From: Ginglymostoma cirratum
Lineage: Eukaryota
Direction: 5' to 3'
Length of the DNA: 64,000 nucleotides
NCBI GenBank assembly: GCA_024137785.1
Contig: JAHRHZ010000274.1
Coordinates: 20,386,086-20,450,085, forward strand
Shown here: piece by piece, positions 9,124-62,686 of the stretch
Numbering within the stretch: position 1 is the first letter of the stretch
Layout: the number at the start of each line of letters is the position of its first letter
Notes under the pieces: generated by a model
The model's database searches: none
What the model was told of the DNA's origin: nothing
Seen by the model: the letters and a program-made list of their open reading frames with translations, nothing else
Position numbers and translations under genes: made by a program

Positions 9124-9157
9124 TTTCTGATGAAGGATCTAGGCCCGAAACGTCAGC
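9124..9157 (+). ncRNA. Minimal hammerhead ribozyme motif, family A, with one stem II mismatch
   Basis: TTT CTGATGA A GGAT CTAG GCCC GAAA C GTC AG. Confidence 0.6.
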
Positions 9158-9221
9158 TTTCCTGCCCCTCTGATGCTGCTTGGCCTGCTGTGTTCATCCA
9201 GCTCTATACCTTGTTATCTCA
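9124..9221 (+). mobile_element. 98-bp Penelope-like pseudo-LTR fragment (family A) starting at the hammerhead motif
   Basis: Matches 33007-33101 and has an exact 13-bp TSD, TATTTGAAACCCA (9111-9123 and 9222-9234). Confidence 0.85.
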
Positions 9222-9686
9222 TATTTGAAACCCAACCCACTTTACAAGAAACTGATACAGTCATCTCTTTTACACCCAGAAGTGAAAGGGGAGCACATAA
9301 AACAAGTAGCCAATATGATCATGCTGGGAAAGTTAGATTATGTAGAGTTATGTCATGTTTCCCCAATATTGAAGTTGGGCACCTAGAAAGGAAAGAAAAT
9401 ACTTATTGTCATACTTAATGACACACCTCTTAATTAATATACTTTATTTACCCAAACAGAATTGCCTAAGATGCATTGGATAGCTTTTCTAATGCTAATG
9501 ACTCTATTGCATTAGCATCATTGTATGAGTACACATTTGAATTTTTGGTTCTCTCAAAATGTGACCTATGTCTACATGTCTACCGGAGATTACTTTTACA
9601 GATATAGCACCATTTTTAATAGGTGAACACTGCTTGTCCCTGTGAGTTTGCCTTGTTCCACAATACTGACCTGATTCTCAGTAACT

Positions 9687-9926
9687 TACAAAAAAGAAAT
9701 TGCTGAAAAGCTCAGCAGGTCTGGCAGCATCTGTGAAGGGAAAAACAGAGTTAATGTTTTGGGTCCGGTGACCCTTCCTCAGAACTGGTTCTGAGTTCTG
9801 AGGAAGGGTCATCGGACCCGAAACATCAACTTTGTTTTTTCCTTCACAGAAGCTGCCAGACCTGCTGAGCTTTTCCAGCAACTTTGTTTTTGTTCCTGAT
9901 TTACTGCATCCGCAGTTCTTTCGGTT
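9687..9926. mobile_element. 240-bp palindromic pseudo-LTR mini-element (family B)
   Basis: Inverted arms, each with a hammerhead-like motif, and a 12-bp TSD, TTCTCAGTAACT (9675-9686 and 9927-9938). Confidence 0.88.
9793..9832 (+). ncRNA. Minimal hammerhead ribozyme motif, family B, mutated in stem III
   Basis: GAGTT CTGAGGA A GGGTC ATCG GACCC GAAA C ATC AACTT: 5-bp stem I, 5-bp stem II and intact core boxes. Confidence 0.6.
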
Positions 9927-12900
9927 TTCTCAGTAACTGTTGCCTGGCTTACTCTGAGGTTTGGAGTACTGTAGGGTTTTTATACTTTATAAACTGAATG
10001 GATACTGTTGTTGTCCTGTGATATCATTATCTTCTGCTCTCAGGATTTCCTGTGAGTCTTTCTGTTTTCTACTTCCAGCACAATCTGAATAGTTTTCTCC
10101 AAAGTCAAATTATCTTTGAATTGTAATAAATCTGTTGAAAGATTATCAGTAATTCCAACAATAATTCTGTTTTATACATTCAAACCTCTATTAGCACAGT
10201 TTCCACTAACCTTTAAAAAGAAGTTAATTATCTAATCTACACAACCCCCAAACCCTTCTGTTAAATCTTGCTTTTTTGTGCATTTTGTTCGCTCTCAGAT
10301 TAAAGTAACTGCCACAAGCTTATAGAGTTAAAAAGCAACTGTGTCTTTTTTATGACTTGATGAGCCAGAACTCAACCAACTGTAGGTCCTATTGAGGGCA
10401 ATAGTCTGTTCTCTTGTTCGGCTTGTGATTAAGTATGTAGCTTGGAAGTAATTCCAAATTCTGCAGTATTTCAATGTTGCTTTATTCTCTTTCCCAAGTA
10501 GAATGTGACTTCTCCAATATAGCAATGTTGTTTAATTTTCCTTGCCTTGAAGGCTTTTAAATGCTGCATTATAAAAGGCTTTTATAATGTGACAATGCTG
10601 CAACTCTGTAATGCATGTATTGATTTTCCTGGCATTTTCGTGTTCAAAACATAAGTTTCTCACTTTCAGTGCCTATTTGTGGGTTCCGTGTCTTCTGCAG
10701 GTAAAATGGAGCATTATCACTATTTATGTGGACAAAATGGATTATTTCCTATCTTTCATGGTAACAGGGATTTTAATCTCACTCACGGAGCTCCCTCTTG
10801 CTTCCCAATGAAACCTGTAAATGCCAAGTGACTAGCTTTCAGCTCACACTTGCTTCTACACTTCTCTTACCAGGTCCAAGGAGAAAAAAAGACTTTACTA
10901 CTAAGTGCTGTTCTTTCGTTGACCTTTCCACGGGTTTGTCTGCAAATTGTTTGACTGTTTAGCTGTTGCAACTGCTGACTGTCTGCATGAATAATTCTTA
11001 AATTTGTAAAGTCTTTACAGCTATAAATGTACAGTAATGCTTTGGGTTCATTGGAATTCTCCTAGTGGTCGTTAAGGAATGTACGTACTGTGATGTTAAA
11101 CATTACTAGCTTGTCACTAGTTTGTTTTCTGCTACCATCCTCTTTCCTTGACTGGGTCTAAATACCTGCCTGGTTTACACTGGAACAGAAAAATCAGTCA
11201 TGTGTCTTAATAGAGGGAGGACATGCCTGAAAAAAGGTGTGGTTTGTTACAGAGTAGAAATCACGTACAAGTTACTTTGCAAGTTAGCCATTGTTCCTAA
11301 GGCCATTGGGAGACTTATGGATAATGGTGTTCATCCTACAATCAAAAGATTTGTTGCATCTTAATACAGTCTTCAGAACCAATTCAGAATCAATATCTTA
11401 TATAACAACAAAGATGTTTTGTATGGGAAATGCAAGTTTTACATTGGTGCATTTCTGATGCTGAAGTTAAGTATTAGGTTTTGTGCAGACTAAAGAAGAA
11501 CTTGGAGTTTGCCATATTTTACATTAAATATTTGAACATAAAAATATTCTACAAATATGAGATCAGGGAGAAATTCTCAGATTTTTTTCATAATTGGTGT
11601 TGGTTTTGTTCTAGTTTCTCAACTTATCTTGAACTAAATGCTTCAGTAGTATGTATCAGGATGACTTAGTACTTGTACCAATGTGACACAGAATAGATAG
11701 ATCCGTAGATTTTTTTTCAGCTATTTGTACGTACTTAAGAGTATTATGTGTAAATAGAGGATAAAATGCAATGTATCATTTGCAAGACAGGCATTAAATT
11801 GTTAGAAGCACACATTGCTATAAATGATTCAGAATATTTTCCCACTATAAAACAGAATCATTATCATTCAGTGGTAGGAAAATTACAATTCTTCCTCTTG
11901 TATTTAACACCACAAATCACTGCGTGGAAATGTCTCCCTTGTCTCAGCTGTTCCCAACTTTGAAAGTCTCCTCAAAAACAACTTCTTTGATCTCACATTC
12001 AGTCACCTCCCTAACCTTGCTTATCCTTTCTGTTCAGTATTCAATCTTCTGCTTTTGTTATGCCACAGATTTGGTTTTAACAATAAAACGAAGGTTCATT
12101 ACAGAAATGAAATTAAGATAATATGGAATAACCATATCATTTACATATCACACAGGTTTAAACATTTTGAAACATACAGTAAAATACAATCATAATAATC
12201 CCAAATGCACTCCTTTATAGTATTCACACTAGAGAGATCTCCCTTCTCTTTCATATCTTTAGGGCTTAATTTGACTATGGCTTTAAATCCCCATTTTGGG
12301 AATTTAGTAGTCTCTCCCTGGAGAATTCTTAAAACTTAGCTTAGATTTTCTCAGCTTCAAATAAATTCTACAGGGTTGTAACCAAACACTTCTGGTCTGG
12401 AACTTTTAACCTAAATTGTTTATACTGAAGTAGCCTATTTCTTACTGATTCTGAACCTATTTTGTCATGTGCAATTTGGCTATTTATCAAGATATCACAC
12501 AGACAAAGAATTATTTAAATTTTATTGCATGTAACAACAAAAATAAGACCCCCCAAGTAAGCAAGTTATACCTCACAACCCAACTTAGCTATTACCTGAT
12601 TAGTGATGGAATTTAGCTACAATTTGAACCAACAGCATCTATCTCTGGGTATGTCCAGTGTTCAACCCTTGTTCAGTATTGTTCTCTGGAATTCTGCTGC
12701 TGAAGAATCCCAAAGCTGAATTCTTATAGGATTTTTAATGCAACATTATTAATGAGACTGTAGTTTTCTTATTAGGAGTGAAAGCCAGCTTCTGTCAACC
12801 TGGCTCTGTGTTCCTTGTTACATTCGGTGTTAGCTGCCTATTCGAAACACAGCCTATCTTGCCATTCACCCCTTAGTTATTTCTGCAGACAATCATTTGT

Positions 12901-13775: not shown

Positions 13776-15818
13776 TGTATTGAAGGTACATACCTCACCT
13801 GCTTAAGTGTCTAATTTGTTCCTGATAAGCAAGTGTAGTTCCCTCAAATTTATAGGTTGCTAAGCTTAACATTTACTACCCTTAAATGTCAGAGACCAAA
13901 GGGTACTTTAATGATGACTTCTCCAAATAAAGTGTATACTTTTGTTGCAAGATCTTAGTTTTCTGAAGAACAAGAATCATGAAGAAATAAAAATACCTAA
14001 CAAACTATGAAAAGGGTAGGCCGTTATACTTCAATAAATATTGATATATGTGTTCATATATATGTTTCATAATAGGCAAGACCCTATGTTCTGTGTAAAT
14101 ATGAAAGAAGTTGCAATCCAACCTAGTTGTTCTCACAATTCTTGTGCCCTAGCATTCATCAAGATTCTGGTTGTATTTAAGCTTCTATTTTAAAAAAGAG
14201 AACCTAAGATATAATTAATTGTACAATTCCTATAATATATATCCCTAAGGGCCAAGATACTGGCCAATAGCCATGACTAATAACTCCCATACACCCTTCA
14301 CTCAAATCTGCGCCAAAGAAAATGCCATGTGAACTGTTTTTAAAGCAATAATTCATCTAAGCACTAGAATTGCCTTGTTTTCGAATATTCAGCCTGACAA
14401 ATGCTACCATTTTTCAAATAAAAATGAAATATTTGTCAAAGAAACCATGACTTTGTTCGTATATAATGAAAATACCTGTATAATGTATGCAGCCTCCAGC
14501 CAATTTACTTGACTTTAAAGCCAATTTGACTGTAGACCAATAATAATTAAAGATGTACATTATTTGTGTCTTAGTGCTTTTTCATAAAAAAAAATCATAA
14601 ATTACTGCGCTTTTAGTTTAAATTCACTTTAAAGTCTGGAGCTAATTTCACATAATGTCTTCCATTTGACAGAACCATTTAGATTTGAAATGGTGGTTTT
14701 AGCTAATCTGTGTTTAGCTCATCTCAGCACTACTTTTCCCTAATGAAAAAGAAATGAAAGATTGCTACTCCTATTTTTGCATTGTACACAATTACTCATT
14801 TCTGCCAGTATCCATTTAATAAGAGCTTGGGCACTTTACGCCATGTTTTTAATATACATTTGTTACAATGGGCTCCATACAATTTTGTCCTTTAATTGAG
14901 ATCATATTGCTGAAACATGTATGGGAAAGTCAGCTTATTTTTACATCTGGGATCCATTTGCATAGCATTTTGTCCTCACCACCCACACAGCACATTGTAA
15001 ATTATAGCACTGAGTTTATAAGTTTATTCCTGCTGCACAGCCAGCATTAGATTGCCATTTACTTTGATAGGAGGGGAAAGAGTATATGCAATCAGCATTG
15101 ACTACATGACAATACCAGTCATATAGAACAGGAAAACTGCTACAGTGTTATCAATTAGTAAGCTACTACCTTGATTGGCATGTTCAGACTTTTTATGTGA
15201 TCCACTGAGTATGGAATACCCTTCATATCTTTCAAAATATCGATCTTCTTTCTGTCTTGTTATAGCTGCAAACACAGTTTTCAATAAGTGTTCTGAACTG
15301 TATTTTTGTTTATAAATAAGAATATTGTTACACCTCTTAATTTTCAGATATCTTGATTATAATGAAAAAATATTTGATGAAACATCCAAATCATGTTTCA
15401 AACATTGGACATCATGTCAGTGGACAGCAACAAACTAACTCCGAGTGGTAAGAAGCATGTACACCCTTGTGAATTTTTAGTGTGCGCCACTGTTGGTTAT
15501 AGGTTCAGCCCATGAGTTAGCATCATGCCTGGTTTTACTGTGTGACCTGGCAAAAAACTCTTATGGAACGTGAAGAAATCCAGCTCCAACCTTGTGTCAA
15601 TGTTTTGCATAGATCATGTGAGACAATTCTACCTGTCATGGACTGAGTGGCTACCTCCATCAACATGGGTAGTGGCAGCCATTATACTGGATGGTGTGAT
15701 GATGACTCTAAAGGCTTTCATGGCGGCAGGTCATTCAGATGGCTGACAATTTGGCTGCTGGGGCTATGTACCCTTGAAAAAGAGAGAGCGAGGTGCTGCT
15801 GGGGAAGCATAAGGAAAA

Positions 15819-16217
15819 CTGAAAGAACCGCAGACGCTGTAAATAAGGAACAAAAACAGAATATGCTGGAAAAGCTCACCAGGTCTGGCAGCATCTGTGA
15901 AGAAAAAATCAGAGTCAACGTTTCTCTGGTTCCTCTGGCTCTTCCCTGGTCTTTGAATGACTACAGCCCCATTTCTTGAAAGGGAGAATAATTTCCCAAC
16001 ACTTGGAGATAATACAACAATTTTTTCCTTATGCTCAAAAACAGAAGTTGCTGGAAAAGCTCACCAGGTCTGGCAGCATCTGTGAAGAAAAAAATCAGAG
16101 TTAACATTTCAGGTCCGGTGACTGAGGAAGAGTCACCGGACCTGAAACGTTGACTCTGAATTTTTCTTCACAGATGCTGCCAGACCTGGTGAGCTTTTCC
16201 AGCAACTTCTGTTTTTG
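15819..16217. mobile_element. Composite family-B pseudo-LTR insertion containing an inverted copy of its own right flank
   Basis: Three pseudo-LTR arms and a 13-bp TSD, AGCATAAGGAAAA (15806-15818 and 16218-16230). Segment 15931-16035 is the reverse complement of 16218-16322. Confidence 0.85.
16122..16156 (+). ncRNA. Hammerhead ribozyme motif, family B, with the 5' strand of stem I lost at the inversion junction
   Basis: CTGAGGA A GAGTC ACCG GACCT GAAA C GTT GACTC. Confidence 0.5.
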
Positions 16218-16334
16218 AGCATAAGGAAAAAATTGTTGTATTATCCCCAAGTGTTGGGAAATTATTCTCCCTTTCAAGAAATGGGGCTGTAGTCATTCAA
16301 AGACCAGGGAAGAGCCAGAGGACCTCTAAATATT

Positions 16335-16485
16335 AGAAAAAAAAAGGACTGCGGATGTTGGAAATCTGAAACAAAAACAAAAATTGCTGGAAGATCTCAG
16401 CAGGTCTGGCAGGATCTATGGACAGACATCAGGTTTAGCATTTTGGGTCCAGTGACCCTTCCTCAGACAATTTCTGTTTTTGTTA
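16335..16485 (-). mobile_element. Degenerate family-B pseudo-LTR fragment
   Basis: Contains GCTGGAAGATCTCAGCAGGTCTGGCAG and GGGTCCAGTGACCCTTCCTCAG, shared with the other copies. Confidence 0.75.
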
Positions 16486-20135: not shown

Positions 20136-20214
20136 AAGAGAGGATTTTGTGTTACTTACAAACAAAGAGCTAAGACATGATGATCAGCCCTGGGAACATT
20201 TCTTCAATATCATG

Positions 20215-23280: not shown

Positions 23281-25128
23281 AACAAAAACAGAAATGGCTG
23301 TAAAAGCTCAGCAGGTCCAGCAGCATCTGTGGAGAGAAATCAGAGTTAATGCTTTGGGTCCAGTGACCCTTCTTCAGAACTGATTGTAGGTAGGAAAAAG
23401 TATTTTTATGCAGAAGATAGGGTGGGGGGAGGGGGTGGAGAGTAAATGATAGGTGGAGATGGAGCCCACAGAGAGAGAAGAGCAGGTGGACAGACAAAGA
23501 AGTTGGTAATGGTCAGATTAGGGCAATAAGTTGCTGCTAATTGGGACTGTTAGTGGCTAACAATGGGTTGTGTGTAATAGCAGACCATGTGATAACAAGG
23601 AACAAAACAAAGTTACTGGAAAAGCTCAGCAGGTCTGGCAGCATCTGTGAGGGAAAAAACTGGGGAAGTTCTGAGGAAAAGTCACTGGACCTGAAACATT
23701 AACTCTGTTTTTTCTTCACAGATGCTGCCAGGCCTGCTGAGCTTTTCCAGCAACTTTGTTTTGTTCCTGATTTACAGCATCCGCAGTTCTTTCGGTTTTT
23801 ATGTGATAACAAGGCCTGGTGTGTGGGGGTTAGGGCAAGGACATGGGAGAAGGTGCCTCAAGTCCTAAAATTGTTGAACTCAATACTAAGCCCAGAAGGC
23901 TGCGGAGTTCCCAAGGGAGAATGAGGTGCTGTTCTTCCAGCTTGTGCTGAACTTTGCTGGAGAACTGCAGCAAGCCTGAGACAGAGATGTCGGCCAGGGA
24001 ACAAGGTGGTGTGTTGAAGTGGCAGGCTATTGAAGGCTCAAAGTCTTTTTTGCAGACAAAACATAAGTGTTCTGCAAAGCAGTCACCCAGTCAATGTTTC
24101 GTTTCCTCAACATAGAGGAGACTACACTGTGAGCAGTGACTATAGTAGACTAGACTGAGTGGTGCAGGTAAAGCGGTGCTTCAGCAGGTGTGCTTGAGCC
24201 CTTGGACACTGCTTTCTGCCACCTCCAGTAGGAATCCACCAACAGAATCATATCCCCCTTCCCTCCCATCCCTGTAAGTCTTTCACAAGGACTGTTCCCT
24301 CAAGGATGCCCTAGTTCATTCCTCCTTCACTTCCAACAAACCCCCACAGCCCCACAGTACTTTCCCCTGCAACCACAGACGCTATAACACCTGCCTGTTT
24401 ACTTCCTCCCTCCTCAGTATCTGAGGGCCCAAACGCAATTTCCAGGTAAAGTAACATTCGTTGCTCATCATGTGGTCTCCTCGACATTGGGGAAACGTAA
24501 CATAGACTGGGTGACTGCTTCAGAGAACACCTATACTCTGTCCACAAAAAAAGACCCTGAGACTCCAGTTGCCTGCCACTTCAACACAGTACCTTGTTCC
24601 CTGGCCAACATCTCTGTCTCAGGCTTGCTGCAGTTCTGCAGCGAAGATCAGCATAAGCTGGAAGAACAGCACCTCATTTTCTGCTTGGGAATTCTGCAGC
24701 TTTCTGGACTTCATAACGAGTTTAACAATTTTAGGGCTTGAGGCACCTTTTCCCTATCATTACCCCCAACCCCATAGCCAGGCCTTGATATCACGTGGTC
24801 TGCTATTACACACTACCCATTGTCAGCCATTAACAGTTCCCATTTGTAGCAATACATTCTCCTAGTCTGACCATTACTCACTCCTTTGTCTGTCCAACTA
24901 TTCTTTTCTCTCTGTGAGCTCTATTTCTACCGATTGTTTACTCCCTACCCTATCTTCTGCATAAAAACCAACTCTTTCCTGGCTACCATCAGTTCTGAAG
25001 AAGGGTCACTGGACCCGAAGGATTTAGCCCTGATTTCTCCCCACAGATGCTGCCAGATCTGCTGAGCTTTTCCAGCAACTTTTGTTTTCATTTCTGATTC
25101 CCAGCATCTGCAGTTCTTCTGGATTTTT
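23281..25128. mobile_element. Older Penelope-like element, family B, made of two inverted 3' halves (degenerate GIY-YIG plus pseudo-LTR)
   Basis: The right half (+, ~24211-25128) encodes PVACHFN...GLLQ...KLEEQHLIFCLGILQLSGLHNEF. The left half (23281-~24210) is its diverged reverse complement. A possible degenerate TSD is TTCAATTTTTATTCTCA / TTCAGTTTTTGCTCA. Confidence 0.85.
23601..23800. mobile_element. 200-bp palindromic pseudo-LTR mini-element (family B) nested in the larger Penelope-like element
   Basis: Inverted arms and an exact 14-bp TSD, ATGTGATAACAAGG (23587-23600 and 23801-23814). Confidence 0.88.
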
Positions 25129-26822: not shown

Positions 26823-27249
26823 AACGCGAGCTCAATAACTGATTGAACTGGCAATATGAGAAAGGTGAATGTGAATTGAGGAGAGTCTAAGAAGTTTTTC
26901 CATGCTTCAATTCTGGGACTCCAGGAGCTACTGAAGAAGCATTTCCTTGTTGTCACTGTCAACAACAAAAACATTTCACATTTTTATAGCACTTTTCACA
27001 TGTGGATAAATATCTCCAAGTGCTTTATAGGATAATGGAAGTCTGGTCGGTGCAGGGCAGGAGCAATAAAAATATTTAGAGTGTACACCAATAGTATTTC
27101 CAACTGAGGCCAAGTTACCATGCTCAAATATGTTTTGACGTTTTTAATATTTAAAACTTTAATGATCCATAAATCAGGATATTCAAATTAGATCTGCATC
27201 ACATTATTACATTTGACTCTGCCTCAGCAGCCCCAGATGCACCTGCAGA

Positions 27250-30730: not shown

Positions 30731-31626
30731 TTGGACAGAGCAATCATCATATTAAAAAGAAACCAGCCTGGGAAATTCTTATCCAGTGCATTAAAGATAT
30801 ATACACAGTGTAATGTACTTATTGTGAGTTCCCTCAATTCTTTTTCACACAATAACAATGCCATAAAAGCATATGCAATAAAGATAACAAGGAAATTCAG
30901 TGCCTTGGACAGCGCAGACGGAGAGTTTGAACAGAAAAAATAAATTGCCAATCCCTTCATTATCAAGACTCTGTCTAAAGCAGAAGGCTTGAAGCTGCAG
31001 GTAACTGGATCACTCCTGTTCAGATCAATCTAAATTGAACAGAAGAAAAAGTGAGTTGAGTCCATTTGTTTGATGACATCCTTTCACATCTGGGATTAGG
31101 GGTTGATTCCAATTCATAGACACCATAGAACTTTTCTCTCTCTGAGACATGTTAAAGACCAGAAGTGAAATTTATTTGGACAGCTTTAAGACATGGCCTG
31201 GTGGGATTGGAATTCACAGTATTAAGTGTTCTTAAGATTAATGTTAATCAGCAGTGTAAAAAACAAAATTGATGGGAAGTTATAGTACCATAGTACAGCA
31301 TTAAGCCTGTTAGAAACCATTAAATCTACAGCACATTAGAGAAGTCATAATATCTTCATGCAAATGATATACACTTTTAAATTATTCTGATAAAGTTAAT
31401 AACAAAATTAATTTAATAAAATACAGCTCAAACTATGAAAATATAGTGTGGAAATAAGTGTTAAACACCTGTGATTTAATTCCCTCTACGATTATACATA
31501 GGCTCAGTTTGCTAAACACATAATTGCTCTAGAGATGAAAGGTACTGCAGATGCTGGAGAATCCGAGATAACAAGCATGGGGCTGGATGAACACAGCAGG
31601 TCAAGCAGCATCATAGGAGCAGGAAA

Positions 31627-31660
31627 CTTGACGTTTCGGGCCTAAACCCTTCATCAGAAA
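31627..31660 (-). ncRNA. Minimal hammerhead ribozyme motif, family A
   Basis: Exact reverse complement of 33007-33040. Confidence 0.75.
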
Positions 31661-31875
31661 TGGGGGAGGGGAAGAGGGTTCTGAAATAAATAGGGAGAGA
31701 GGGGGAGGCGGATAGAGGATGGATAGAGGAGAGGATAGGTGGAGAGGAGGCAGACAAGTCGAAGAGGCGGGGATGGAGCCAGTAAAGGTGAGTGTAGGTA
31801 GGGGGGTAGGGAGGAGATAGGTCAGTCCAGGGAGGACGGACAGGTCAAGGGGGCGGGATGATGTTAGTAGATAGG

Positions 31876-32275
31876 NNNNNNNNNNNNNNNNNNNNNNNNN
31901 NNNNNNNNNNNNNNNNNNNNNNNNNNNNNNNNNNNNNNNNNNNNNNNNNNNNNNNNNNNNNNNNNNNNNNNNNNNNNNNNNNNNNNNNNNNNNNNNNNNN
32001 NNNNNNNNNNNNNNNNNNNNNNNNNNNNNNNNNNNNNNNNNNNNNNNNNNNNNNNNNNNNNNNNNNNNNNNNNNNNNNNNNNNNNNNNNNNNNNNNNNNN
32101 NNNNNNNNNNNNNNNNNNNNNNNNNNNNNNNNNNNNNNNNNNNNNNNNNNNNNNNNNNNNNNNNNNNNNNNNNNNNNNNNNNNNNNNNNNNNNNNNNNNN
32201 NNNNNNNNNNNNNNNNNNNNNNNNNNNNNNNNNNNNNNNNNNNNNNNNNNNNNNNNNNNNNNNNNNNNNNNNNNN
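31876..32275. other. Assembly gap (400 N)
   Basis: Run of N between the inverted arms of the Penelope-like element. Confidence 1.
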
Positions 32276-32754
32276 CCACACCCGGCACTTTTCCTTGTAA
32301 CCGCAGGAAGTGCTACACCTGCCCCCACACCTCCTCCCTCACCCCAATCCCAGGCCCCAAGAAGACTTTCCACATCAGGCAGAGGTTCACCTGCACATCT
32401 GCCAATGTGGTATACTGCATCTGCTGTACCCGTTGTGGCTTCCTCTACATCGGGGAAACCAAGCGGAGGCTTGGGGACCGCTTTGCAGAACACCTGCGCT
32501 CAGTTCGCAACAAACAACTGCACCTCCCAGTCGCGAACCATTTCAACTCCCCTTCCCACTCCTCAGATGACATGTCCATCCTTGGCCTCCTGCAATGCCA
32601 CAGTGATGCCACCCGAAGGCTGCAGGAACAGCAAATCATATTCAGCCTGGGAACCCTGCAGCCCAACGGCATCAATGTGGATTTCACAAGCTTCAAAATC
32701 TCCCCTCCCCCAACCGCATCCCAAAACCAGCCCAGCTCATCTCCACCTCCCTAA
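32276..32754 (+). CDS. C-terminal GIY-YIG endonuclease domain of a Penelope-like element ORF (5' part hidden by the gap or truncated)
   Basis: Uninterrupted frame with CNRRKCYTC (Neptune-type Cys motif), NVVYCICC...LYIGET.RRL..RF.EH, PVANHFN and EQ.IIF.LGTLQPNGIN. Confidence 0.88.
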
Positions 32755-33006
32755 CCGGTTTTTCCTCTCACCCCAAGCCACACCCCCATCTCCTATCTAC
32801 TAACATCATCCCGCCCCCTTGACCTGTCCGTCCTCCCTGGACTGACCTATCTCCTCCCTACCCCCCTATCTACACTCACCTTTACTGGCTCCATCCCCGC
32901 CTCTTCGACTTGTCTGCCTCCTCTCCACCTATCCTCTCCTCTATCCATCCTCTATCCGCCTCCCCCTCTCTCCCTATTTATTTCAGAACCCTCTTCCCCT
33001 CCCCCA

Positions 33007-33040
33007 TTTCTGATGAAGGGTTTAGGCCCGAAACGTCAAG
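33007..33040 (+). ncRNA. Minimal hammerhead ribozyme motif, family A
   Basis: TTT CTGATGA A GGGT TTAG GCCC GAAA C GTC AAG: conserved core boxes, stem II, loop-less palindromic stem III (ACGT), GUC cleavage triplet and a 3-bp stem I. Confidence 0.75.
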
Positions 33041-33939
33041 TTTCCTGCTCCTATGATGCTGCTTGACCTGCTGTGTTCATCCAGCCCCATGCTTGTTATC
33101 TCACATAATTGCTCTAGGTCATTGAGTTTATAAAATCACACTGATGTGCTTACTTACCAAGATTGACACTTCCCCTTGCAATAATCTATAACTTTCATGT
33201 GCAAATTTCGCAGAGAGTAATTTGCATTATTTTTCTATCAAACTAATATTTCTGTCCTCTGATGTAATGCAGCTGAATCTTATGCTATTTTGTCTAAGAG
33301 TCAACTTCACTGAGCTTCATGGATGGTTTTTCCCCTTGAGGCCTATCAATACATCTCACCATGTCATCCCAAATTCACCTCATTAAACACCTGCCATGCT
33401 CCTTTGGCTACCCTCTCATTCAATGGAAGCCCATTCCCCCAGTCACCATAGCCAAAAGAACTCACCATTGCTAGGATATCCCGGAAGAGATTGGTGTCCC
33501 TGGCTCCAGGACATCTTTGAACCTTAGTTGAACATCCAGCAAGCACTGGAAATGCAGGGTAGCCCTTCACAAGCAAGGTCCCAGACACATGCTGCCTGCA
33601 GCACATAGCTGCCATGGCTGACATTTCCTGGCATGTTCAGCTCCACTTTCTTGACCCTGACACTGTTTAACCACCAGGTCACACAGATCATCTATCCATA
33701 ACCACTTCTTACCCTCTCTATGTCCCTGCTATTCTGTCTCCAATGCCCCCTGTAGACCATATTTTATCATTATCTGGGGGGCCACAACACACAGGTATGC
33801 ATTTGGACAATTCCAAAGCTGAGCTTTTATTTTCAGTTAAAAATAAATTGAAACAAAACTAATAGAAGCATCTACAATGCAAATGAAATGCTGTCATGAT
33901 GACCAATAACTATTCTACATTCTCCTGCACCATCTTTCC

Positions 33940-36700: not shown

Positions 36701-36719
36701 AACACTACCAAAAGAAGCA

Positions 36720-50477: not shown

Positions 50478-51111
50478 GAATCGTAGTCAGACAGCACGGA
50501 AACAGACCTTTCGGTTGAACCAGTCCATGCTGAACATAATCCCAGACTAACTAGTCCCACCTGCCTGTTCCTGGCCCATATCCCTCCAAAACTTTTCTAT
50601 TCATGTACTTATCCAAATGTCTTTTCAATGTTGTAATTGTAACCACATCCACTACTTTCTTAGGAAGTTCATTCCACACTTGAACCACCCTCTGCATAAG
50701 AAATTTGCCTCTCGTGTCTTTGTTAAATCTCTTTCCTCTCACCTTGAAAATGCATCCCCTAGTCTTGAGATTCCCCATACTAGGGAAAAGACAGCTACCA
50801 TTAACCCTATCTATACCTCTTAGTATTTTATATACTTCTATAAGGTCACCTCTCAACCTCCTATGTTCCATTGAAAAAAATCCCAGCCTAGCTAGCTTTT
50901 CTTTATAACCCGACCTTCCCTACCCCATCCTGGCAAATCTCTTCTGAACCCTGTCCAGCTTAATAATGTCCTTCCTATAACTGGGAGACCAGGACTGGAC
51001 ACAGTATTGCAGTAGAGGCCTCACCAATATCCTGTACCTCAATAACCTCAACATGATTTCCCAATTCCTATACTCAAAGGACTGAGCAATGAAGGCAGGC
51101 ATGCCAAACAC
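50478..51111 (-). mobile_element. CR1 LINE 3' fragment
   Basis: LVRPLLQYCVQ.WSP.YRKDI.KLDRVQKRF and RRLRGDLIEVYKILRGIDRV...TRG..FKV motifs. Confidence 0.92.
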
Positions 51112-51558
51112 ATCTTCTGTTGTCTGTACTTCCTCAGATTAGTGTAAGTGATGAGCACCGGCCACATGGGAGTGGAAATAGCATAAAGGAGCAGTACATG
51201 TTGACTACTCTCAGGATGCCAGCACACTTACCTTTCTGCCACAGTCTCGCCCAATGTTACTCTGGTGCCAGCAAATCAGTTGGACCAAACATACAGTGCA
51301 CGAGTTTCAGCAGTCTCCAGTCAGTCCCTCACAAACACAAACCTCCAGGAGAGAACAGCTATAGCCATTTCGGCATCCCAACATAGGGAGGAGCTGCATT
51401 CCATCTGCCTTGTTCAGTCCTCATAGGAATAGTGTAATGAGCCTTCTTTAAAGAAAAGTACTATTGATTGATTGTTAGGGTGAGAAATGATTGTCAGGCA
51501 ATTTGGTGTGGAGCTGGATGAACACAGCAGGCCAAGCAGCATCATAGGAGCAGGAAAG

Positions 51559-51592
51559 CTTGACGTTTCGGGCCTAGACCCTTCATCAGAAA
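51559..51592 (-). ncRNA. Minimal hammerhead ribozyme motif, family A
   Basis: Exact reverse complement of 51734-51767. Confidence 0.75.
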
Positions 51593-51733
51593 TGGGGGAG
51601 GGGAAGAGGGTTCTGAAATAAATCGGGAGAGAGGGGGAGGCGGATAGAGCTCCACCTATCCTCTCCTCTATCCATCTTCTATCCACCTCCCCCTCTCTCC
51701 CTATTTATTTCAGAACCCTCTTCCCCTCCCCCA

Positions 51734-51767
51734 TTTCTGATGAAGGGTCTAGGCCCGAAACGTCAAG
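51734..51767 (+). ncRNA. Minimal hammerhead ribozyme motif, family A
   Basis: TTT CTGATGA A GGGT CTAG GCCC GAAA C GTC AAG. Confidence 0.75.
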
Positions 51768-54080
51768 CTTTCCTGATCCTATGATGCTGCTTGGCCTGCT
51801 GTGTTCATCCAGCTCTACACCTTGTTATCTCAGATTCTCCAGCATCTGCAGTACCTATTATCTCTGTCAGGCAATTGGTTTGGCATTAATCAGCTTTATT
51901 ACATTTTGACTTTGATCCACAGTTTAATAGCAACTTCTGGATCTGCTTTGTAAGAATATCATTGATCCAGATGCTGTTTAAATTGCTTCGAGGTTCTTCA
52001 CTGCAGAAAGAAAGGGGTCAAACTGGGCTGTTGAAGTTGTCAGATTGGGTGCAATTAAGTTAACGGAGTTGCTGATCCCTCATATTTGATGCTGCAAGCT
52101 GTTTATTCTTTGCTGCTGCTCATGGTCCTGATGTCAGCCTCTGTTATTTAAATCAGGTCCAGAAGTTAAATAGCCTGTGCCTCACAGAGTTTCCTTTGGG
52201 GTGGCTTTCCTCAGCCTGTAAATTGATGCCTATTCTGAATGTACACCTCAGTTGAAATCCATGTTGATATATTCTTATCAAAGCCACTTATTTTATTCAT
52301 CTTAAGTGTTGTTCTGTCTGCTTCTGCTCAATGGCTGTCTGCTCCATTTGGGAACTGGTTATGTAAGCTCTGGCAAGAAGCATTCACAAGCAAAACCATC
52401 CTACCCTTGTTCCCTGGAACGTGGAAGACATACAGATTATTCACATCCTAGTACTAGAAAGCTTTAAAAACTTAACATCTTAGGCCTGAGACACGTAATG
52501 GGTTTCACACCATAATGCCTCTGTATTTCACTTGTACATTCGTGATATCTGCTACTTTGAGGTTTTTTTCCTAAGCTCTAAATATTCCTTTCCTCAACCT
52601 TTGTATCCTTGCAGTTTTAAAAATCAAAGTTCTATACATTGTTTCCCAGTCCAGTTAATCTTACTGAAGATTCATGACCATGGGACTCTAACTCCCTCAG
52701 CTGTCTTTTGTAAAGTCATAATTTTAAGATCCAATTTTGGTGTCATTTGCTCACAATGCCTCACTTCTCCTTCTTGTCACTTTTCAAACTGAGTGGTCCA
52801 ATATTTTGTCAGGAGGTTATGAAAATAAGTTAAAGGTTTCACTGGCAGACTGTTTACTTACACAGTTGTTCAGCCAAGAAAAAAATTCTCTACAAAAAGA
52901 GTTCTGAGAAGTGCAGAGTAGTCACAAGACTTCTCATGTTATAGAAGAAAAATAGTGATGAAAAGCTTCAAAGAAAACACCAGAGTCAGAACTGTAGCAT
53001 AGCTTGTTTATTTTTTTTAAACTTTTTTTGCATAGGGAAACATATTCACTTCCAGTAATTGTATGTAGTATGAGCAGCTGCTAACAGTAATGGCTGAATA
53101 CAATGGTTATAATCAAATGTCAAGCTGAGTTCACACCAGTTTAAAACGAGTGGTGATTTAGTTACGTATATACTGTACATCTGTGTACAAAAGCAGCAGG
53201 AAAGATGCTGGTCTTTGTACAAGTGTCCCTTTACATAATTAGCTAAAAATCAAAAGACAAATACAATCAAAATAAATGATTATTTTTAGTTGTTGGAGTA
53301 GAACTGTGATCATGAAAGATTTTATTTTGTCAGAAGTTTGCATCAAGCAACTAAAGAGCCACAAGTTTGTCCTGGTGTGTAGTGTGTGTATGTCTGTGCA
53401 GCAAGCAAGCGGTTAACTACTGTGGTAACTACCGTAATATTCTAAAATATAATGAAAAACCCTCAGAAATAACACGGTCTCAATGCGTTCTCAGAGAAAT
53501 ATTCTCTTCCCAGAATATGTGCAATGTAATACATATGGAATTACAACAGTGATGTTCAAAGGACATTTGTCATAGAGCCTGTGCAACAAAGACATAAAAA
53601 AAAGACAAACTGTGAAAACCAGGTCTTGCAAAGCAAAATTGAATCCAGCAGTTGACTATCAGGCACTGCATTTATTAAAAATGTTTTTGGTACTTTTCTG
53701 CTGGCTTGTTAAAATTGCTAGAAATAACTGCAGAGAATAATGCAACTGCTTATCAGATCATTGCCCTCTATATAACTATGATCAACATCAAAGCTCAAAT
53801 TTGCAGAAAAAAAGGAAGCTGAATTTATTCCTCCTTTTTTGCCGCTACTGTCATGCTAATCAACAGATTACTCCCTATGGGCTATTTGCAGAAAATGTGC
53901 TGCATCGATGGATCTTTTGCCTGTTTTCCTGTTATTTCATACAGTAAAGTTCAGTGCAGATGGATCAAAGCACGCGAAGCATAACCTTGCTTACATGGAG
54001 CTGCCTCATTTGGGTTCTGTAGATGGATTAAGGCTTTGAAACATATTTCCTTTGGTTACTGACTTGCAGTAAAATATAAT

Positions 54081-56379: not shown

Positions 56380-59300
56380 TAAATTCAGTGATACATTTTA
56401 TTGAAAATAAAAGTAATGGGTATTAAGCACATTTCATTCCATTTTTAAAAAATGCTTTTCCATCTGACAGGTAAAAAACTGAAGTTTCAAAACTGCCAGG
56501 ACTTAAAAATATTAAGGTCTGTCATAAATTTTAAAAGTATACTTGGAGAATAGAGGCATCAGGACCCTTTTTTAAAGAGAATGTGGGAAGAGTTTTATGT
56601 GTGTTGCATTAAGTGGTGAGTCAATCATCTGTAAAATGGAATGTTAGAGGGAAAAAAATGCTGATGAGGTGACCGTAAATATTTAGAATGTTCTATCAAA
56701 TGCGGAAGGGCTAGATGGTTAACGAAAATTTCTCAATTAAAGGGACAAAGATCACCTCATCGTCTGCACCACATATAACTATGCCTGCAAAACTGCACTA
56801 GTGACAGTGTTCACCCTACGTTTCCCAACAAAAGTTATCAGCCAACTCATAACCCCTTTAGGAATAATATAATAAGTCACATGTTTGACTGTGGCAGCAT
56901 TCTATCCTGCTTGAGAGTCTGAACGATGGAAGAGAATTCCCTAAAGGAATTCTTAAACAAGGATTTCACGGAGCATGCAGTCAGCCATTGCCAAGGGTTG
57001 GAATACACATGTAAACAATGTTTTCTGTCCTGCCTTAAAAATAAACTAGCTACCAGCATTGCATTGTCCTTTGCACAAACAATACTGTACATTGCATACA
57101 ACAATTTGTTGGGCTCCCTTGCCCTACAAAGAGTACACATAATCTGTTCTACTCCCACCAGTTTAGCACTTGAAAGTCTACAGACTTTTTTCTTTAAAAC
57201 AGTCAAAGAGACTACAATGACAACACTCCTTCTTAAAATTCCAAGTGTTTCTTACAAGTTTGACATAATTACTCTTCATAAAATAAAGCATTTTTTCCAT
57301 TTACAATGGCTCTTTTACACCAGAAGCCTATACTTTTAAAGTATAGGAATATGCAAAACCATAAAAATGAGGACAATTACCGTATTTAAATACAATAAGG
57401 GTAACAGGAGAGTTTAACTCAAATCCAGTTCCCATGGAGGAAGAATACTCTACAAATGGTATATAATGCTGAACATTCTTAATAAGCCAGTGTAATGAAA
57501 CTTTTTTTTTGTACTTTTCTCATTACAAAAGTCTTTGCCTTATAAAATAGGGTAGATTAAGTAAAACATACTTAATAAAACTATACAGCTTACAAATTAC
57601 ACAGTCTGCAAAGAAGGCAGCTAATGTCCAAGACAAGGATGTGACAAGGATCAAACTTGCTGGCATTATTCCCCTATTTCTTGTCCCCCTTGTGCAGCAT
57701 CCCAGTTAGCATACCAAGTGTCAATCAAACACAAATTATTAAAGCTCGGAGACATTAGTAGGGTCTTGAAGCAGAGCTATATATGTCTTGGTTATCATTT
57801 ATCATTCCACCTTTGTGTAGATGGCAATTTTGTTGAACAATGCTACCATGCCAAATTGACACCCCACAACTATTGCTTTGTGTTATTCGTTTTTTCAATT
57901 CTTTATGTACAACTTTAGTTCATGGTTTTTCATATTCTGACTAGAATAGAAGCTTCCCCTTGAAGTTCAGGCCAGTTGACAGTTTAGGCTGTGAAGCATT
58001 TAGGGCCTGGCCGAATAGTGCACATATCTATAGAAATGATGTGACCTATTTCCTTTTCGAACCAGATTCTGGTACAAAGGACAACAGAAGTACTGCTTAC
58101 CAAGTGCTGTAATCAACTTAACAGTTTTTTTAAAAAGTAGCTCAAAGGAATCCTATCTTTAGTCAAAATTAGTGATTAATGCACTGTTGAAATCCAAATC
58201 TCCCGAAATAACATGCAAGAAAAACATTTACTTGATTGAAAACAGTTTGACATTTTACAACTTATAGAGGCTTGTACCACACTAGGTCAAGATATTGGGC
58301 CCAGTGGATTTACTACATTAATTGCCTGATCAGCTGCCACTGTATTTTGTGAAATGGAGCCTGTCCAGTTTACTCTGATTAAGGAAATTATAATCTAGCA
58401 TCCAATGCTTTAGCCACCAGAACACACAGGAAAATAAAACAAGGCTAAACTTGTTTTTATAATGTGTTGCCAGTGTGGTGCTTCACAGCTGTACTGTAAA
58501 TATACATACCCACCCCCCAACCCCATTTTCAGCCTTCCCTAATCATGCATCAAGCATTATTTATAACAGGAGAAGGACCTATTTTTCTTTCTGTATAGAG
58601 AGCAGCACCAACTTTGGTCAATTAAAACAAAATTAATATTTAAAAAAAATAGAAAAGTATGATGTTGTAGTTATCAAGTGTGCTAACTCAAAATGATTAA
58701 ACAAGCTAAATGCTCTATCACTATAGACAAGACTGGTATTGCATATTTTCCAAAGATTCAAAATAAAAGGAGCTGGAAGACGCAAGTAGGGAGAATCAAA
58801 AGTGAAACACTTTCCATTAAAGTATTAGTGACAAATAACGTCCAAAAGCAATGTTCCTACATGACCGCAAGATGAATATATTCTATACGAAAGTCCACAG
58901 AATCACTGGAATACTGATAATTAGTGCTGTTACAATGTCCTATGAAGCAAAAATCATAAACCCTTACATTTTTACCAATGGCAATTTTTTTTAATGACAA
59001 GCAACCATACATGCAGCCAAAAGATTGTGCAGTGATACCAACGATTTTTTAAACATTTTTTCTCAAAGGCAAGGCACATAATGTGGTATAAAATTCCGTG
59101 CAAATTAGGAAAGGATTTTGTAGGGAAAAGAGTGAAGCCCGCACATAGTTGCCATGCACGTCAGAATTCAGCAATTCAGCTGATCTTTTTTTGCTGGATC
59201 ACAAAGTTTACTATCAAAGCACCATGCATAACTCAGCACCTTTGATGAAAAAAAAATGTCAATATAAATACGTTTAGAGTTTGCCTCACTGTTGCTGTTT

Positions 59301-61532
59301 ACACTCGTGAGGTTTGGATGCCAGCATTTAGCTCAGGGAAAGCTGTACCTAACCAAGAAATATAAGCTTACACGGACAGAAATTTGTTCAGATGCAAGCT
59401 ACTTTTGTCAAAAGCATTCAGTTGTGAACAGAACTAAATTATGCCAAATATTGCTTTTGATATGTGTCAGTTTAACGAATGATATTCTGTGCACAAGTGC
59501 TGTCTTTTTAATTTTATGAGAGTGCGGCTGGCTACCCTCTGATTAAAAAAAAATAAGTAACATACTGACTAAGGCATTTGTGTTCACCTGTGAAAGGTGG
59601 GTGGGGGAGGGGGTTTGGGTGCACTTTTGTGCCACAGTCGCCTAGCGACAATTTTCCCCTGTTTACAGTCCTGGGGTACAAGGACAAGTTACAAAGAATC
59701 ACTAAGATACAAAATTGTTTCCTTTCAATTGCACTTGCCTCTTAAATCTTTTCAAAAGATTTTTTTTTGTCTTTGCTTAAACAGGCAGTTAACCTGTTCC
59801 TTTAAAAGCAACCACTTCCTTTATTTCCCCAACTTAAAGTTGATTACTGATTGGACGTTAGCTTCCCAAGAATGAATTTGAAACCAAGTTAGACCTTGTT
59901 CAATTCTGCTTCTGTTCTTTTGTGAAATAAGCTACTGGCAGAAAAGTGTGATTACCTGGGGAGGGGCGGAGGGCTGAATACATTGTGTTTAACTTTACAA
60001 TTTAAAAAAAACACAAAAATATTGATCTTGAAACAATTTTCTACCCTGCTCCCAAAATGTATTCCACTAAGCTAAAGATACTCTGAGTTTGCAGCTATTT
60101 GTATGTTTAATTTTGAAAATAAATGCAACCTGCAGCTAGGAGGGAAAGGTAAAGTATGTATGCTAACGTGAGGCCTTGCACTTGCATTGTGTATGAAGAA
60201 CTTCCCCACACTCAATCTGTAGCCACCCTTTGCCTCCCAATACTATCAATAAAAGCTAGGTATGTATTTTATGGTGTATGGCATGCATTAGTGAAGAAGC
60301 GACAATAACTAAAACCGATAAAACTACTGCTCTGGTAGATGAGCATCTGCATCTGCGCTATTAGCTACATGCAAAAACTAAGTAGGGTGGGAAAATTGTA
60401 ATTGAGAAATAGTAGCAACATTACTGAATGGTTTGCTTTATGGTATGCTGTGATTAAATAATTCTGAAAATGTGTTTAAAGTTTTAGGTAAATTAAATCA
60501 TTCACCGACCAACCTGTGGTGCAGGAGGTTTCTAACACTGAATCGATTCATTATCTTCTTTAGTTTATAGGCAACAGAACAGAATTTGCTTCATGATGTT
60601 CCCAGTAATTGACAGGGTAGGGCTAGGAAATATTGCCCTGGTTAACTTGACCCGCAACGTTGGTACCAAGGAACTGTCTAATTTTAAATATGTCAGTCTG
60701 AACAATTGATTGATTTGTTACCATTGCATTAAACACATTTATTTGTGTAGTAGAAAAATATCCTTTCTTATGTTTAGCTTGCCCAAACGTCTGAAATAGA
60801 AACAAGGAATATAACTTGATGTCAAGCTAATGAATTAGCCATATTGAAGTGATGGTCTCCAATGTGTAGGCTTCATTAGTGCATGTTTTTATGATGTTTA
60901 GAACTTTGCAATAAAGTTAGTAAACAAAGACTGATCACAACGATTATAATCAAGAATGATTTAAATAAATGTGAAGAATTGTCTTAAACTGTGATCACTT
61001 TTAATTGACCTCAGGTATTCCAATGCACAGATACACTCATTCTGTGCATTTCAGCACTTGAAGGCTAAGTTTGGGTGACTTCTAAATGATTATGCACAAT
61101 ACTGCACATCCATCCTTTGTGTAAATAATGCTACCTTTACTCTTTAGAAAGGAGAAATCAAAAGAAAACCATAATGTAACTTTGAATAATGTTCGATTGA
61201 TGAAGGTTAATTTTCCCACCCTTTCGAAAGCAGATTTAGTAAACTTTGTTCTGAATTTTTTTTTAAGAAATATAAAGGCTTATTTGCATAAAACAGATGG
61301 GGAAACCTCAGGCTAAGCTTCAGCCAATGGAAGAAGTGAATTGCACCCATCTTCGGAACATGTTGGTAGGATGATAGTGTTTCTGACTTTTCATTTTCTT
61401 TTAAAGGCGAGTCGATAAATAGTCTTCTCCCTTGTTTCTCTCTGTTTTAAACTTGAAACCAAAGTTGACGCTCGACCATGTTTCTGGAAACATGATTAAA
61501 TAGCTTCTGTAATACTCGAAAGGGGACTTCAA
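56380..61532 (-). other. Long (~5.1 kb) 3' UTR of the NFI gene
   Basis: It follows the stop codon, is AT-rich with U-runs, and has no recognisable transposon fragments, unlike the rest of the window. It ends at a minus-strand AATAAA. The 3' boundary is inferred. Confidence 0.6.
56397..56402 (-). terminator. Candidate polyadenylation signal (AATAAA) of the NFI transcript
   Basis: Plus-strand TTTATT lies at the distal edge of the UTR-like tract. Other AATAAA hexamers exist, so this one is not proven to be used. Confidence 0.4.
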
Positions 61533-61550
61533 CTATCCCAGATACCAGGA
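61533..61550 (-). CDS. NFIB: Terminal coding exon segment of a Nuclear Factor I (NFI/CTF) transcription factor, reading SWYLG-stop
   Basis: The minus strand reads TTTTTATTTTTTCACAG|TCC TGG TAT CTG GGA TAG, a strong splice acceptor followed by S-W-Y-L-G-stop. This is the characteristic last-exon C-terminus of vertebrate NFIA/NFIB/NFIC. The family call is firm. The NFIB call rests on my recollection of 3' UTR motifs (AGAGGCAAGTGCAATT, TAGTTTTATCGGTTTTAGT), not on a search. Confidence 0.7.
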   Translation of the reverse strand, partial: SWYLG

Positions 61551-62470
61551 CTGTGAAAAAATAAAAACATAAACATTAGGAACATTAATGGCTTAAAATA
61601 AGAAAATAAACCAAAGAGCACACACCAACCTTGAGCATGGAAAAATATTTCAACATTCAGGCACTCAGTAAATAATCACTATGCCAGTTTAATAACAGGG
61701 TGTATGCAGGCTAATAATGGTTACCCCTCTCCAGTCAAAGTATGTAACAAATTGCCACAATTAGGCCCTGGACCCTACCTTAATAATTATGGCAAACTGT
61801 GGGTGCCTGCCATGGCCTGCAGCTCTCCAGAGGCCTTGCCAGTAGAGACAGGGAGATAGATCCTTCACAAGTGTGGGGGCAGGGAAGAGAATGGGGGCTG
61901 GCAGCAACAGATCAGCAGGAGTCCACAAGCATGGTCCACATGAAGCCAAGTTTACAAACAACTCCCTACTGTACAGAATACCTGCATCAGTGCTTTGTAT
62001 ATGATCGGGTCAGAAGCGGTGTGAAAAATGGACAAACTGAAGAATTATGCCATCCTACTGGCTGTAATTCCTTGTACAATTCTAGGCCTTCAAGGGAACA
62101 CCCCCAATACCCAATAATTGAATTAAGAGAAACAGACACACTCCTTGTCCTAAAGACATATATGATCATTGTATCCCTTGTCATTTTCCAAGAAGGAAAA
62201 TTAACATGTAAAAATGTTTAACTTGAACCAAGATTACTTGCTAGGTTCAGCATAATAATACAAATTTGCTGTTCGTCTTTATTACTGCATTATTAAAAAT
62301 TCTTTGTGAACAAATCTGTTTAATGGCTTAACTTATAGTTTAAACCATGACCTTTCAAATAAGAATGAGTGAAATATCTAGTGAGCAATTAAATGCCAAG
62401 GTTTCTGTTTTCCATCTGATTCCTTGGCACACCACAACTACAACAAAAACCAATCAGTTATCCCAAACAG

Positions 62471-62686
62471 AAAAACCAAAGAACTGTGGATGCTTGAAAT
62501 CAGAAAGAAAAACAGAAATTGCTGGAAAAATTCAGCAGGTCCGGCAGCAGCTGTGAGAAAAAGCGGAGTTATCATTTCAGGTCCAGTTCTGAATAACAGT
62601 CACTGGACCTGAAACATTAACTCTTGCTTTCTCTGCACAGATACTGCCACACCTGCTGAGTTTTCCCAGCAATTTCTGTTTTTGTT
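62471..62686. mobile_element. Degenerate palindromic pseudo-LTR mini-element (family B) in the last NFI intron
   Basis: Inverted arms, ACAGAAATTGCTGG...CCAGCAATTTCTGT, with a decayed hammerhead motif at the centre. Confidence 0.78.

Follow-up and report, generated by a model that had tools for sequence, protein, structure and literature searches.

Copies of a Penelope-like element in the genome of the shark Ginglymostoma cirratum often begin at the first base of a minimal hammerhead ribozyme, a likely start of capped RNA

The window analysed here is a stretch of 64,000 nucleotides from the shark Ginglymostoma cirratum (NCBI GenBank assembly GCA_024137785.1, contig JAHRHZ010000274.1, positions 20,386,086 to 20,450,085), in which a preliminary description had recognised 13 minimal hammerhead motifs of the dimer type within repeats of a Penelope-like element (PLE). 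What that description missed is that the first base of the ribozyme is the start of most precisely ended copies of the element. Judging from sequence comparisons, we consider it probable that minimal type I hammerheads lie in the pseudo-long terminal repeat (pLTR) of a Neptune-type PLE, that the first base of stem I is the likely start of the RNA, which would be capped, and that most short copies are likely run-off products made by reverse transcriptase (RT) on uncut RNA. The motifs are real hammerhead motifs of a known type, new for this host; the new part is where copies begin, whereas the motif itself was already known.

The element consists of an open reading frame (ORF) for RT and a GIY-YIG endonuclease (EN), followed by the pLTR, the hammerhead, a conserved box and an optional tail of ~35 nt; the hammerhead is located in the pLTR, sense to the RT-EN ORF. 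The two families, A and B, that had been distinguished earlier are subfamilies of one lineage with a common downstream box and tail, and the lineage includes at least the subfamilies A1/A2, A3, C, B, and D. To locate the ends of copies, we used the window and five 200-kb regions (955,343 non-N bases), 3 of 8 sampled regions having been dropped as all N; this sample is not strictly random, with two regions chosen where sequence was known to be present and one adjoining the window. It contained 242 pLTR ends, or one per 3.9 kb, detected with a profile built from the tail alone (control, 0). Copies with at least 82% identity and no adjoining gap (198 of 242), sampled independently of the core, were used for the 5' ends. 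These lay no more than 7 nt upstream of core position C3 in 30/100 copies of subfamilies A and C, 38/94 of B, and 3/4 of D, and within 3 nt of the predicted cut in 4/100 (A/C) and 6/94 (B). The copies ending at the 5' edge (n = 70) comprised 21 with a directly adjacent inverted partner and 49 solo units. Target-site duplications (TSDs) of at least 7 nt flanked 11 of the 49 solo units, compared with 0.5 in shuffles, and the upstream flanks were mostly unrelated (5 all-versus-all matches, 3 of them within one trio), from which it follows that the solo edge units are independent insertions. The flank comparison and the TSDs also rule out divergence of upstream sequence between subfamilies as the source of the 5' pile.

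Genome-wide counts reproduced the pile. A boundary was scored where the three preceding bases were all unlike the element; patterns for the 5' edge were anchored on the hammerhead and the others on post-cut sequence, and the two populations differ somewhat. The edge yielded 12,400 boundaries, 9,028 at three nucleotides before C3 (C3-3) and 3,372 at four (C3-4), the predicted cut 602, and the control positions 209 (at -7 from the cut), 89 (-2), 189 (+2), and 236 (+9). Truncation at the cut site was accordingly rejected as the main class of 5' end, given 602 boundaries at the cut versus 12,400 at the edge and no local peak. Long copies behave in part alike: among 30 loci with the N-terminal part of the ORF, 7 reach the upstream pLTR, of which L298 and L303 start at the edge, L314 starts exactly at the cut, L294 and L308 run into upstream pLTR, and two hit gaps, so that two of the five long copies whose 5' end can be read start at the edge.

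The sequence around this edge resembles a promoter of RNA polymerase II. Using motif definitions that are general knowledge, we found that all 11 long natural copies (A1, A2, A3, C, B, and D) contain a YYANWYY initiator whose A, at C3-4, is the first base of stem I; in 8 of the 11, this A is preceded by a TATA-like box at a distance of 29-32 nt. Both occur in the window, as follows.

32975..32981, plus strand: TATTTAT, a TATA-like box of the predicted promoter, lying 31 nt before the initiator A.
33006..33041, plus strand: intact family A1 minimal hammerhead in which the initiator motif, with its A at 33006, forms the 5' arm of stem I; the core begins at 33010, with the extra A at 33017, stem II at 33018-33029, GAAA at 33030-33033, then the CG palindrome, with the predicted cut after 33037.

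The cut predicted after C33037 agrees with the position given previously. At the C3-4 ends, a G directly precedes the initiator A in 53 of the first 100 listed (scored by eye), against 23/100 one base further out (P = 2e-5) and 19/100 before the cut-site boundary (P = 8e-7); excluding 14 ATG rows, for which the partner arm is a possible source, G remains in 39/86 (P = 0.002). An untemplated 5' G has been read as copying of the cap for L1 (as described in PMC9341517), and the extra G at the initiator ends is as expected from cap copying. The 5'-end pile, the initiator with its TATA-like box, and the extra G together suggest that the RNA likely starts at stem I; with such a start, the units of about 100 and 135 nt are likely run-off copies of uncut RNA.

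The pile could instead be a by-product of DNA joining or of RT stalling, the RNA starting elsewhere and the motifs being of the same known kind. AAA-ended cDNA might anneal to T-runs or fold back, or RT might halt at the edge of a C-rich tract. An extra T at 82 of the first 100 listed C3-3 ends speaks for such a process, as do the long C-rich tract directly upstream in family A and the preference of a PLE endonuclease for AT-rich, ATT sites, as given in PMC11167929. The same pile, however, appears in B and D despite their other first bases (AGTT and AGTC) and other upstream sequence, the control for starts at AAA reached only 209, and T microhomology leaves the extra G unexplained. We therefore regard an origin by joining or stalling as unlikely; the extra Ts fit slippage on UUU at the RNA end or annealing to T-rich targets.

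Another candidate is a family of non-autonomous units, like a short interspersed element, in which the short hammerhead-plus-tail units descend from a few short masters and have inherited a shared 5' end. Short units are the commonest class, RNA depth over them is about tenfold that over upstream pLTR, and non-autonomous PLE derivatives (retrozymes) are described in 10.64898/2026.07.22.740005. Against this, starting at the initiator means loss of the TATA-like box from the unit, every subfamily shows the boundary, as do the long ORF-bearing copies L298 and L303, and its position is heterogeneous by 1-3 nt with varied extra letters, all of which makes descent from short masters very improbable.

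A start of capped RNA at stem I would fit into the following scheme. RNA polymerase II would start at the initiator A, which would limit stem I to about 4 bp at most; the element's RT would then prime within the RNA at one of two tail sites and run to the cap. Upstream-tail priming would yield the 100/135-nt units and downstream-tail priming the long copies, and if both DNA strands of one target were primed, one per site, head-to-head pairs with one tail would result. Internal RT priming at two sites is reported in vitro for an anole PLE (PMC11167929). Of the 242 copies, 103 have a short 3' end, about +65 from the cut site, 104 have a long one, about +100, and 35 have another end. Head-to-head pairs within 4 kb account for 134 of the 242 ends, 67 pairs versus 38±4 after strand shuffling, and neighbours within 4 kb comprised these 67 head-to-head, 46 inward, and 38 direct arrangements. 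The 61 same-group pairs included 41 with one long and one short 3' end, 6 with matching ends, and 14 with another end. In 21 of 36 gap-free pairs the partner arm was among the closest 10% of copies, which is compatible with one RNA or two per pair. A non-LTR retrozyme array was considered and rejected: the window holds no head-to-tail hammerhead tandem, and head-to-head neighbours are commoner than direct ones.

In this scheme cutting by the hammerhead would be rare and would take place in a dimer joined by ACGU pairing and assisted by protein. With the cut site 32-35 nt from the 5' end, cutting would take off the cap; in tandem RNA produced by read-through, it would trim units. The 602 ends at the cut site exceed the highest controls by 1.8-2.9-fold, depending on clean-up (about 15/100 of these ends are indel variants and 16/100 are AAA rows), and this excess may record rare cleavage in vivo. 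A competing possibility, to which we give clearly less than an even chance, is that the fold is kept for protein binding or RNA pairing and is not cleaved in vivo, the excess reflecting an RT pause at its foot. The uncut 5' edge has 12,400 precise ends, at least 20 times as many as the cut, and the local sample shows no cut-site peak; moreover, core mutants of the anole PLE were without effect in the in vitro insertion assay and none of the RNA reads had an end at the cut, according to PMC11167929, and Naiad PLEs thrive without hammerheads (PMC8557442). Countering this, the catalytic core columns are the most conserved ones (13/14) and persist in distant PLEs, the excess sits on the exact predicted bond, with 602 ends versus 89 at -2 and 189 at +2, and the cut-site ends lack the cap-like G, while the long copy L314 starts exactly there. 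A fold without cleavage is compatible with the start-site part of our best explanation.

Conservation was measured on 28 copies chosen from 72 with a recognisable core. Columns identical across five subfamilies numbered 13/14 in the core, 1/8 upstream, 2/21 in the linker, 15/22 in the box, and 15/23 in the tail, and the core thus stands out from the upstream and linker sequence, as would be expected of the ribozyme proposed in the preliminary description, while the box and tail are conserved as well. The covariation claimed there between the A and B stems was reduced to one double change (stem I pair 3, U-G to G-C) and otherwise one single change, at pair 4 of stem II. Every subfamily has G-C at pairs 1-3 of that stem, and double changes at the subfamily level occur at I.1 (in D, 2 copies, U-A to C-G), I.3 (in B, U-G to G-C), and II.5 (in D, A-U). 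Overall, 7 of 19 pairs showed a double change versus 1 in 500 shuffles, a comparison made on 28 hand-picked, related copies, in some rows of which stem I is misregistered. The CG palindrome is kept in 27 of 28 A1/A2 copies. Beyond the shark, 18 of 80 distant metagenomic PLE loci, the best 80 among 358 that were confirmed, carry a minimal hammerhead with the core kept and the stems unrelated but pairing (controls, 0), and an initiator-like motif lies within 12 nt upstream in 8 of 17 (background, 7.4%). In one metagenome contig (L267:4247), a hammerhead closer to the canonical form lies 3' of a distant PLE ORF; its helix III is a 4-bp palindrome and it lacks the extra base.

Several observations weigh against the proposed start and the cleavage of its RNA. 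The initiator-like A of distant PLEs lies at 5-12 nt rather than 4, it is absent in 9 of 17, and the window of positions was picked post hoc. Initiator and TATA motifs carry little information, the 11 copies examined for them are related, and a TATA-like box is missing from 3 of these. Run-off does not explain the 5' ends that fall inside the core or stem II (26/100 in A/C and 21/94 in B), and in A3 and C a U-C mismatch occupies pair 3 of stem I. Penelope of Drosophila virilis is reported to have an internal, TATA-less promoter and a start that precedes, by 46 nt, an intron ending at helix I (PMC2377424, PMC4209133), so the layout does not hold for every PLE. Read ends did not pile up anywhere in one deep RNA run, which was unstranded and swamped by short units; in this polyA RNA, 43,517 of 12.9 million reads fell on the pLTR stretch, the unique 5' region was covered, and inversion joints clustered at the hammerhead edge. 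Finally, nearest-neighbour folding of six copies, with a model that omits core contacts, found the best dimer fold to be 12-30 kcal/mol lower in energy than the active dimer.

This unfavourable dimer folding leads us to expect weak cleavage without protein. For family A2, the stem II region was predicted to make a 12-bp intermolecular duplex instead, and pairing through the full AACGUU would join A14 with U17, which are left unpaired in the active hammerhead core. At 51745-51756, stem II of family A and its loop form a 12-nt self-complementary word that could serve as a second pairing contact or an inactive trap. The possibility that the hammerhead edge is a splice acceptor was also discarded as not general, the AG being found in B and D and absent in A and C. 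Our literature search, with most subscription journals outside its coverage, returned nothing linking a PLE hammerhead to an RNA start.

Downstream of the ribozyme, the conserved box GAUGCUG can pair with CAGCAUC of the optional tail (51755-51850 in the 51737 copy), enclosing a GCUG-N8-CAGC hairpin. This box-tail helix was paired in 92% of cells and the enclosed hairpin in 97%, with almost no covariation or variation. The two 3'-end sites flank the tail strand of the helix, which makes it a candidate RT-binding or priming structure.

The assignment of the hammerheads to a PLE, proposed from the DNA alone, is borne out by the upstream ORF, which encodes RT plus, at the C terminus, a GIY-YIG endonuclease and whose closest named homologs are from carpet sharks (Rhincodon, 92% identity; Stegostoma, 88%; Chiloscyllium, 78%). 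Elsewhere in the genome, RT+GIY-YIG ORFs span 641-961 aa, some across N gaps, with the hammerhead motif ~260 nt downstream on the same strand. The element protein is a single ORF, RT first and GIY-YIG at the C terminus, with a CCHH finger, a DKG motif, and a C-x4-C-xx-C linker. A CX2-5CxxC linker between RT and EN is described in Neptune and Nematis and as absent from Penelope and Poseidon (PMC8557442); the element is best classified as Neptune-type on its protein sequence, with Neptune favoured over Nematis by motifs and host group. The first ATG of the long ORF is ~145-165 nt past the hammerhead core. In L303 (645-1500) the long ORF begins ~145 nt past the core (MPTLKK...), Ala/Thr/Pro-rich repeats precede RT, and the protein would exceed 1,000 aa.

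The element is very young and abundant in this genome. Exact patterns matched 65,903 times for family A and 7,678 times for family B in the 4.36-Gb assembly, which includes long N stretches, with 0 matches for reversed controls, so the expectation of a genome very rich in these motifs was justified. The A1/A2 sequence just after the cut has 89,729 exact matches (0 for reversed controls), and a piece of the EN gave 133,107 first-look candidates, 150 of which were scored and had identities of 99-100%. Among the vertebrate genomes compared in the papers cited here, this one is among the most hammerhead-rich.

All 13 motifs of the preliminary description are present in the window at the coordinates and on the strands it gave. 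Intactness was judged by a descriptor requiring both core boxes, pairing of the 15.2/16.2 couple (the CG palindrome), a stem II of at least 4 bp, and a stem I of at least 3 bp; 4 of the 13 passed (31657 on the minus strand, 33010 plus, 51589 minus, and 51737 plus), whereas none of the 8 family B copies did and the 9127 copy failed as well. The minimal-hammerhead descriptor scan that had been proposed, run on a first sample consisting of the window and six 200-kb regions (three of these all N), gave 18 matches versus 0 in each of 5 shuffles, which, with the absence of reversed-control matches genome-wide, shows that the motifs are not due to chance. The suggested density of about one per 5 kb is close to that of pLTR ends and does not apply to intact motifs, 27 of which were found in the kept sample, one per 35 kb. 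An Rfam scan of the window at E ≤ 10 returned no hammerhead family among 35 matches, and its miRNA matches are long inverted repeats.

Nine insertion events, most of them head-to-head pairs, account for the 13 motifs; a TSD was identified by script in six of these and by eye in one. The window has 18 pLTR ends in all, including 5 truncated ones absent from the preliminary description. The insertions and their parts are the following.

31531..33102, no single strand: head-to-head family A1 insertion with a 16-nt TSD CACATAATTGCTCTAG; left arm with core 31657 (minus) and tail, right arm with core 33010 and no tail.
32278..32754, plus strand: C-terminal GIY-YIG endonuclease end of the Neptune-type ORF (PF01541, E = 5.4e-06).
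51509..51866, no single strand: head-to-head family A2 insertion, cores 51589 (minus) and 51737 (plus), both intact; TGTCAGGCAATT common to both flanks (by eye).
9122..9225, plus strand: solo hammerhead+box unit of ~104 nt that begins at the initiator; core 9127, stem II damaged; TSD TATTTGAAACCCA.
9688..9928, no single strand: family B fold-back pair, cores 9782 (minus) and 9798 (plus), both decayed; both arms start at the initiator; TSD TTCTCAGTAACT.
15815..16217, no single strand: complex family B insertion, TSD AGCATAAGGAAAA; plus arm with decayed core 16122, truncated minus arms at 15815-15923 and 16036-16122.
16337..16467, minus strand: solo family B hammerhead+box+tail unit, core 16466, decayed; a TSD was looked for and none found.
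23285..25127, no single strand: older family B head-to-head insertion, cores 23377 (minus) and 24995 (plus), with broken GIY-YIG remnants at 24233-24771 (plus) and 23917-24156 (minus) (tblastn E = 1.6e-24 and 1.7e-14).
23598..23801, no single strand: younger family B fold-back pair, core 23671 (plus), nested within the left arm of the 23285..25127 element; TSD ATGTGATAACAAGG.
62471..62686, no single strand: family B fold-back pair, core 62589 (plus) decayed, minus arm truncated within stem II.
63236..63317, minus strand: family B box+tail remnant without hammerhead, matched by the tail profile.

The 32278..32754 frame stops 256 nt upstream of the 33010 core and shares 99% identity with an RT+EN ORF at another place in the genome. 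It contains the C-x4-C-xx-C linker and, between its GIY and YIG boxes, a CxxC, a trait that PMC8557442 likewise gives for Neptune and Nematis. The 311-nt arms of the surrounding insertion are 100% complementary and enclose a gap of 400 N (31876-32275); the 100% identity of the arms (31565-33102) may result partly from assembly across the hairpin. Assembly gaps inside head-to-head pairs were seen here and in 9 of the 61 sampled pairs. A 162-nt inverted duplication (15931-16092 and 16161-16322, 99%) takes in host flank around the 16036-16217 fold-back pair, so this insertion seems to have copied neighbouring DNA. Among features unrelated to the element, 29208-29306 holds 17 GTTAGG units in a degenerate array, a telomere-like repeat at an interstitial site; fragments of other long interspersed element reverse transcriptases lie at 28482-28958 (PF00078, E = 2.9e-08), 27173-27574, and 50551-50919, the latter two CR1/L2-like by eye; and 56923-57339 holds a 138-aa open frame with Cys/His and no Pfam match, possibly a host exon. 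Seven other ORFs of the window were likewise without a Pfam match.

The shark motif agrees with the minimal hammerhead of metazoan PLEs described by Cervera and De la Peña (2014; PMC4209133), namely a minimal motif with an extra base, a palindrome, opposite-strand pairs 100-700 bp apart, and low activity as a dimer. Shared features are CUGANGA and GAAA followed by NUH, the extra base between 9 and 10.1, G10.1-C11.1, the palindromic 15.2/16.2 CG without loop 3, a short stem I, the pLTR location, and occurrence mostly as solo units or opposite-strand pairs, whereas stem II is shorter here (4-5 bp). The extra A and loop-less palindromic stem III emphasised in the preliminary description are therefore present but not new, both being standard PLE traits, and a viroid-like novelty of the extra A is ruled out by the PLE consensus (PMC4209133). 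The 65,903 matches to one exact pattern here compare with ~4,000 in the coelacanth and ~9,000 in Xenopus in that report, although the descriptors differ and the counts are not strictly comparable. There is no cartilaginous fish among the species in the part of its Fig. S3 considered here and no shark term in the searchable portion of its supplement, and, unlike our proposal, the portions of the paper covered here do not relate the motif to transcription start.

The RT with C-terminal GIY-YIG, the CX2-5CxxC linker, the CCHH finger, and the DKG motif are those of the Neptune clade (Craig et al. 2021, PMC8557442; Arkhipova et al. 2013, PMC3846280), and the same sources describe insertion units with partial tandems, an inverted 5'-truncated copy, a 30-40 bp tail on one end, and TSDs. 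The sharp hammerhead 5' boundary with an extra G does not appear in the passages of these sources considered here, and the shark element is very young and abundant. Frangieh et al. (2024; PMC11167929) report extension on both strands, protein-assisted cleavage, and insertion without need of cleavage. Their Anolis Poseidon element, PAc, likewise has two RT start sites that define the tail, priming of both target strands, and a hammerhead near the ORF start; it belongs to another clade, and its ORF starts at stem II, whereas here the first ATG lies well past the core. Cleavage of PAc was shown to need protein (PMC11167929). Non-LTR retrozymes (10.64898/2026.07.22.740005) are also PLE-derived non-coding units with a type I hammerhead, with one chondrichthyan genome reported, but they are defined as head-to-tail arrays, whereas the units here are solo or head-to-head with TSDs.

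The role of PLE hammerheads has been called unclear (PMC8557442), and a young family with close to 90,000 near-identical ends makes the boundaries countable, so that the counts of start-site, cap-like G, and cut-site ends bear on this open question. In a bolder and rather doubtful version of our proposal, the hammerhead of the shark Neptune element would be the 5' end of its capped RNA, with the stem I arm as RNA polymerase II initiator; it would act as a protein-gated self-decapping switch and would pair two templates via ACGU for double-headed insertion, while ~100,000 copies would record both the capped start, as an extra G, and rare cleavage, as ends at C17. If the RNA does start at stem I, its 5' end would be fixed at the ribozyme, and both the short stem I and the mass of 100/135-nt units would be explained; cleavage would then remove the cap, and the counts would imply that only a small share of templates is cut.

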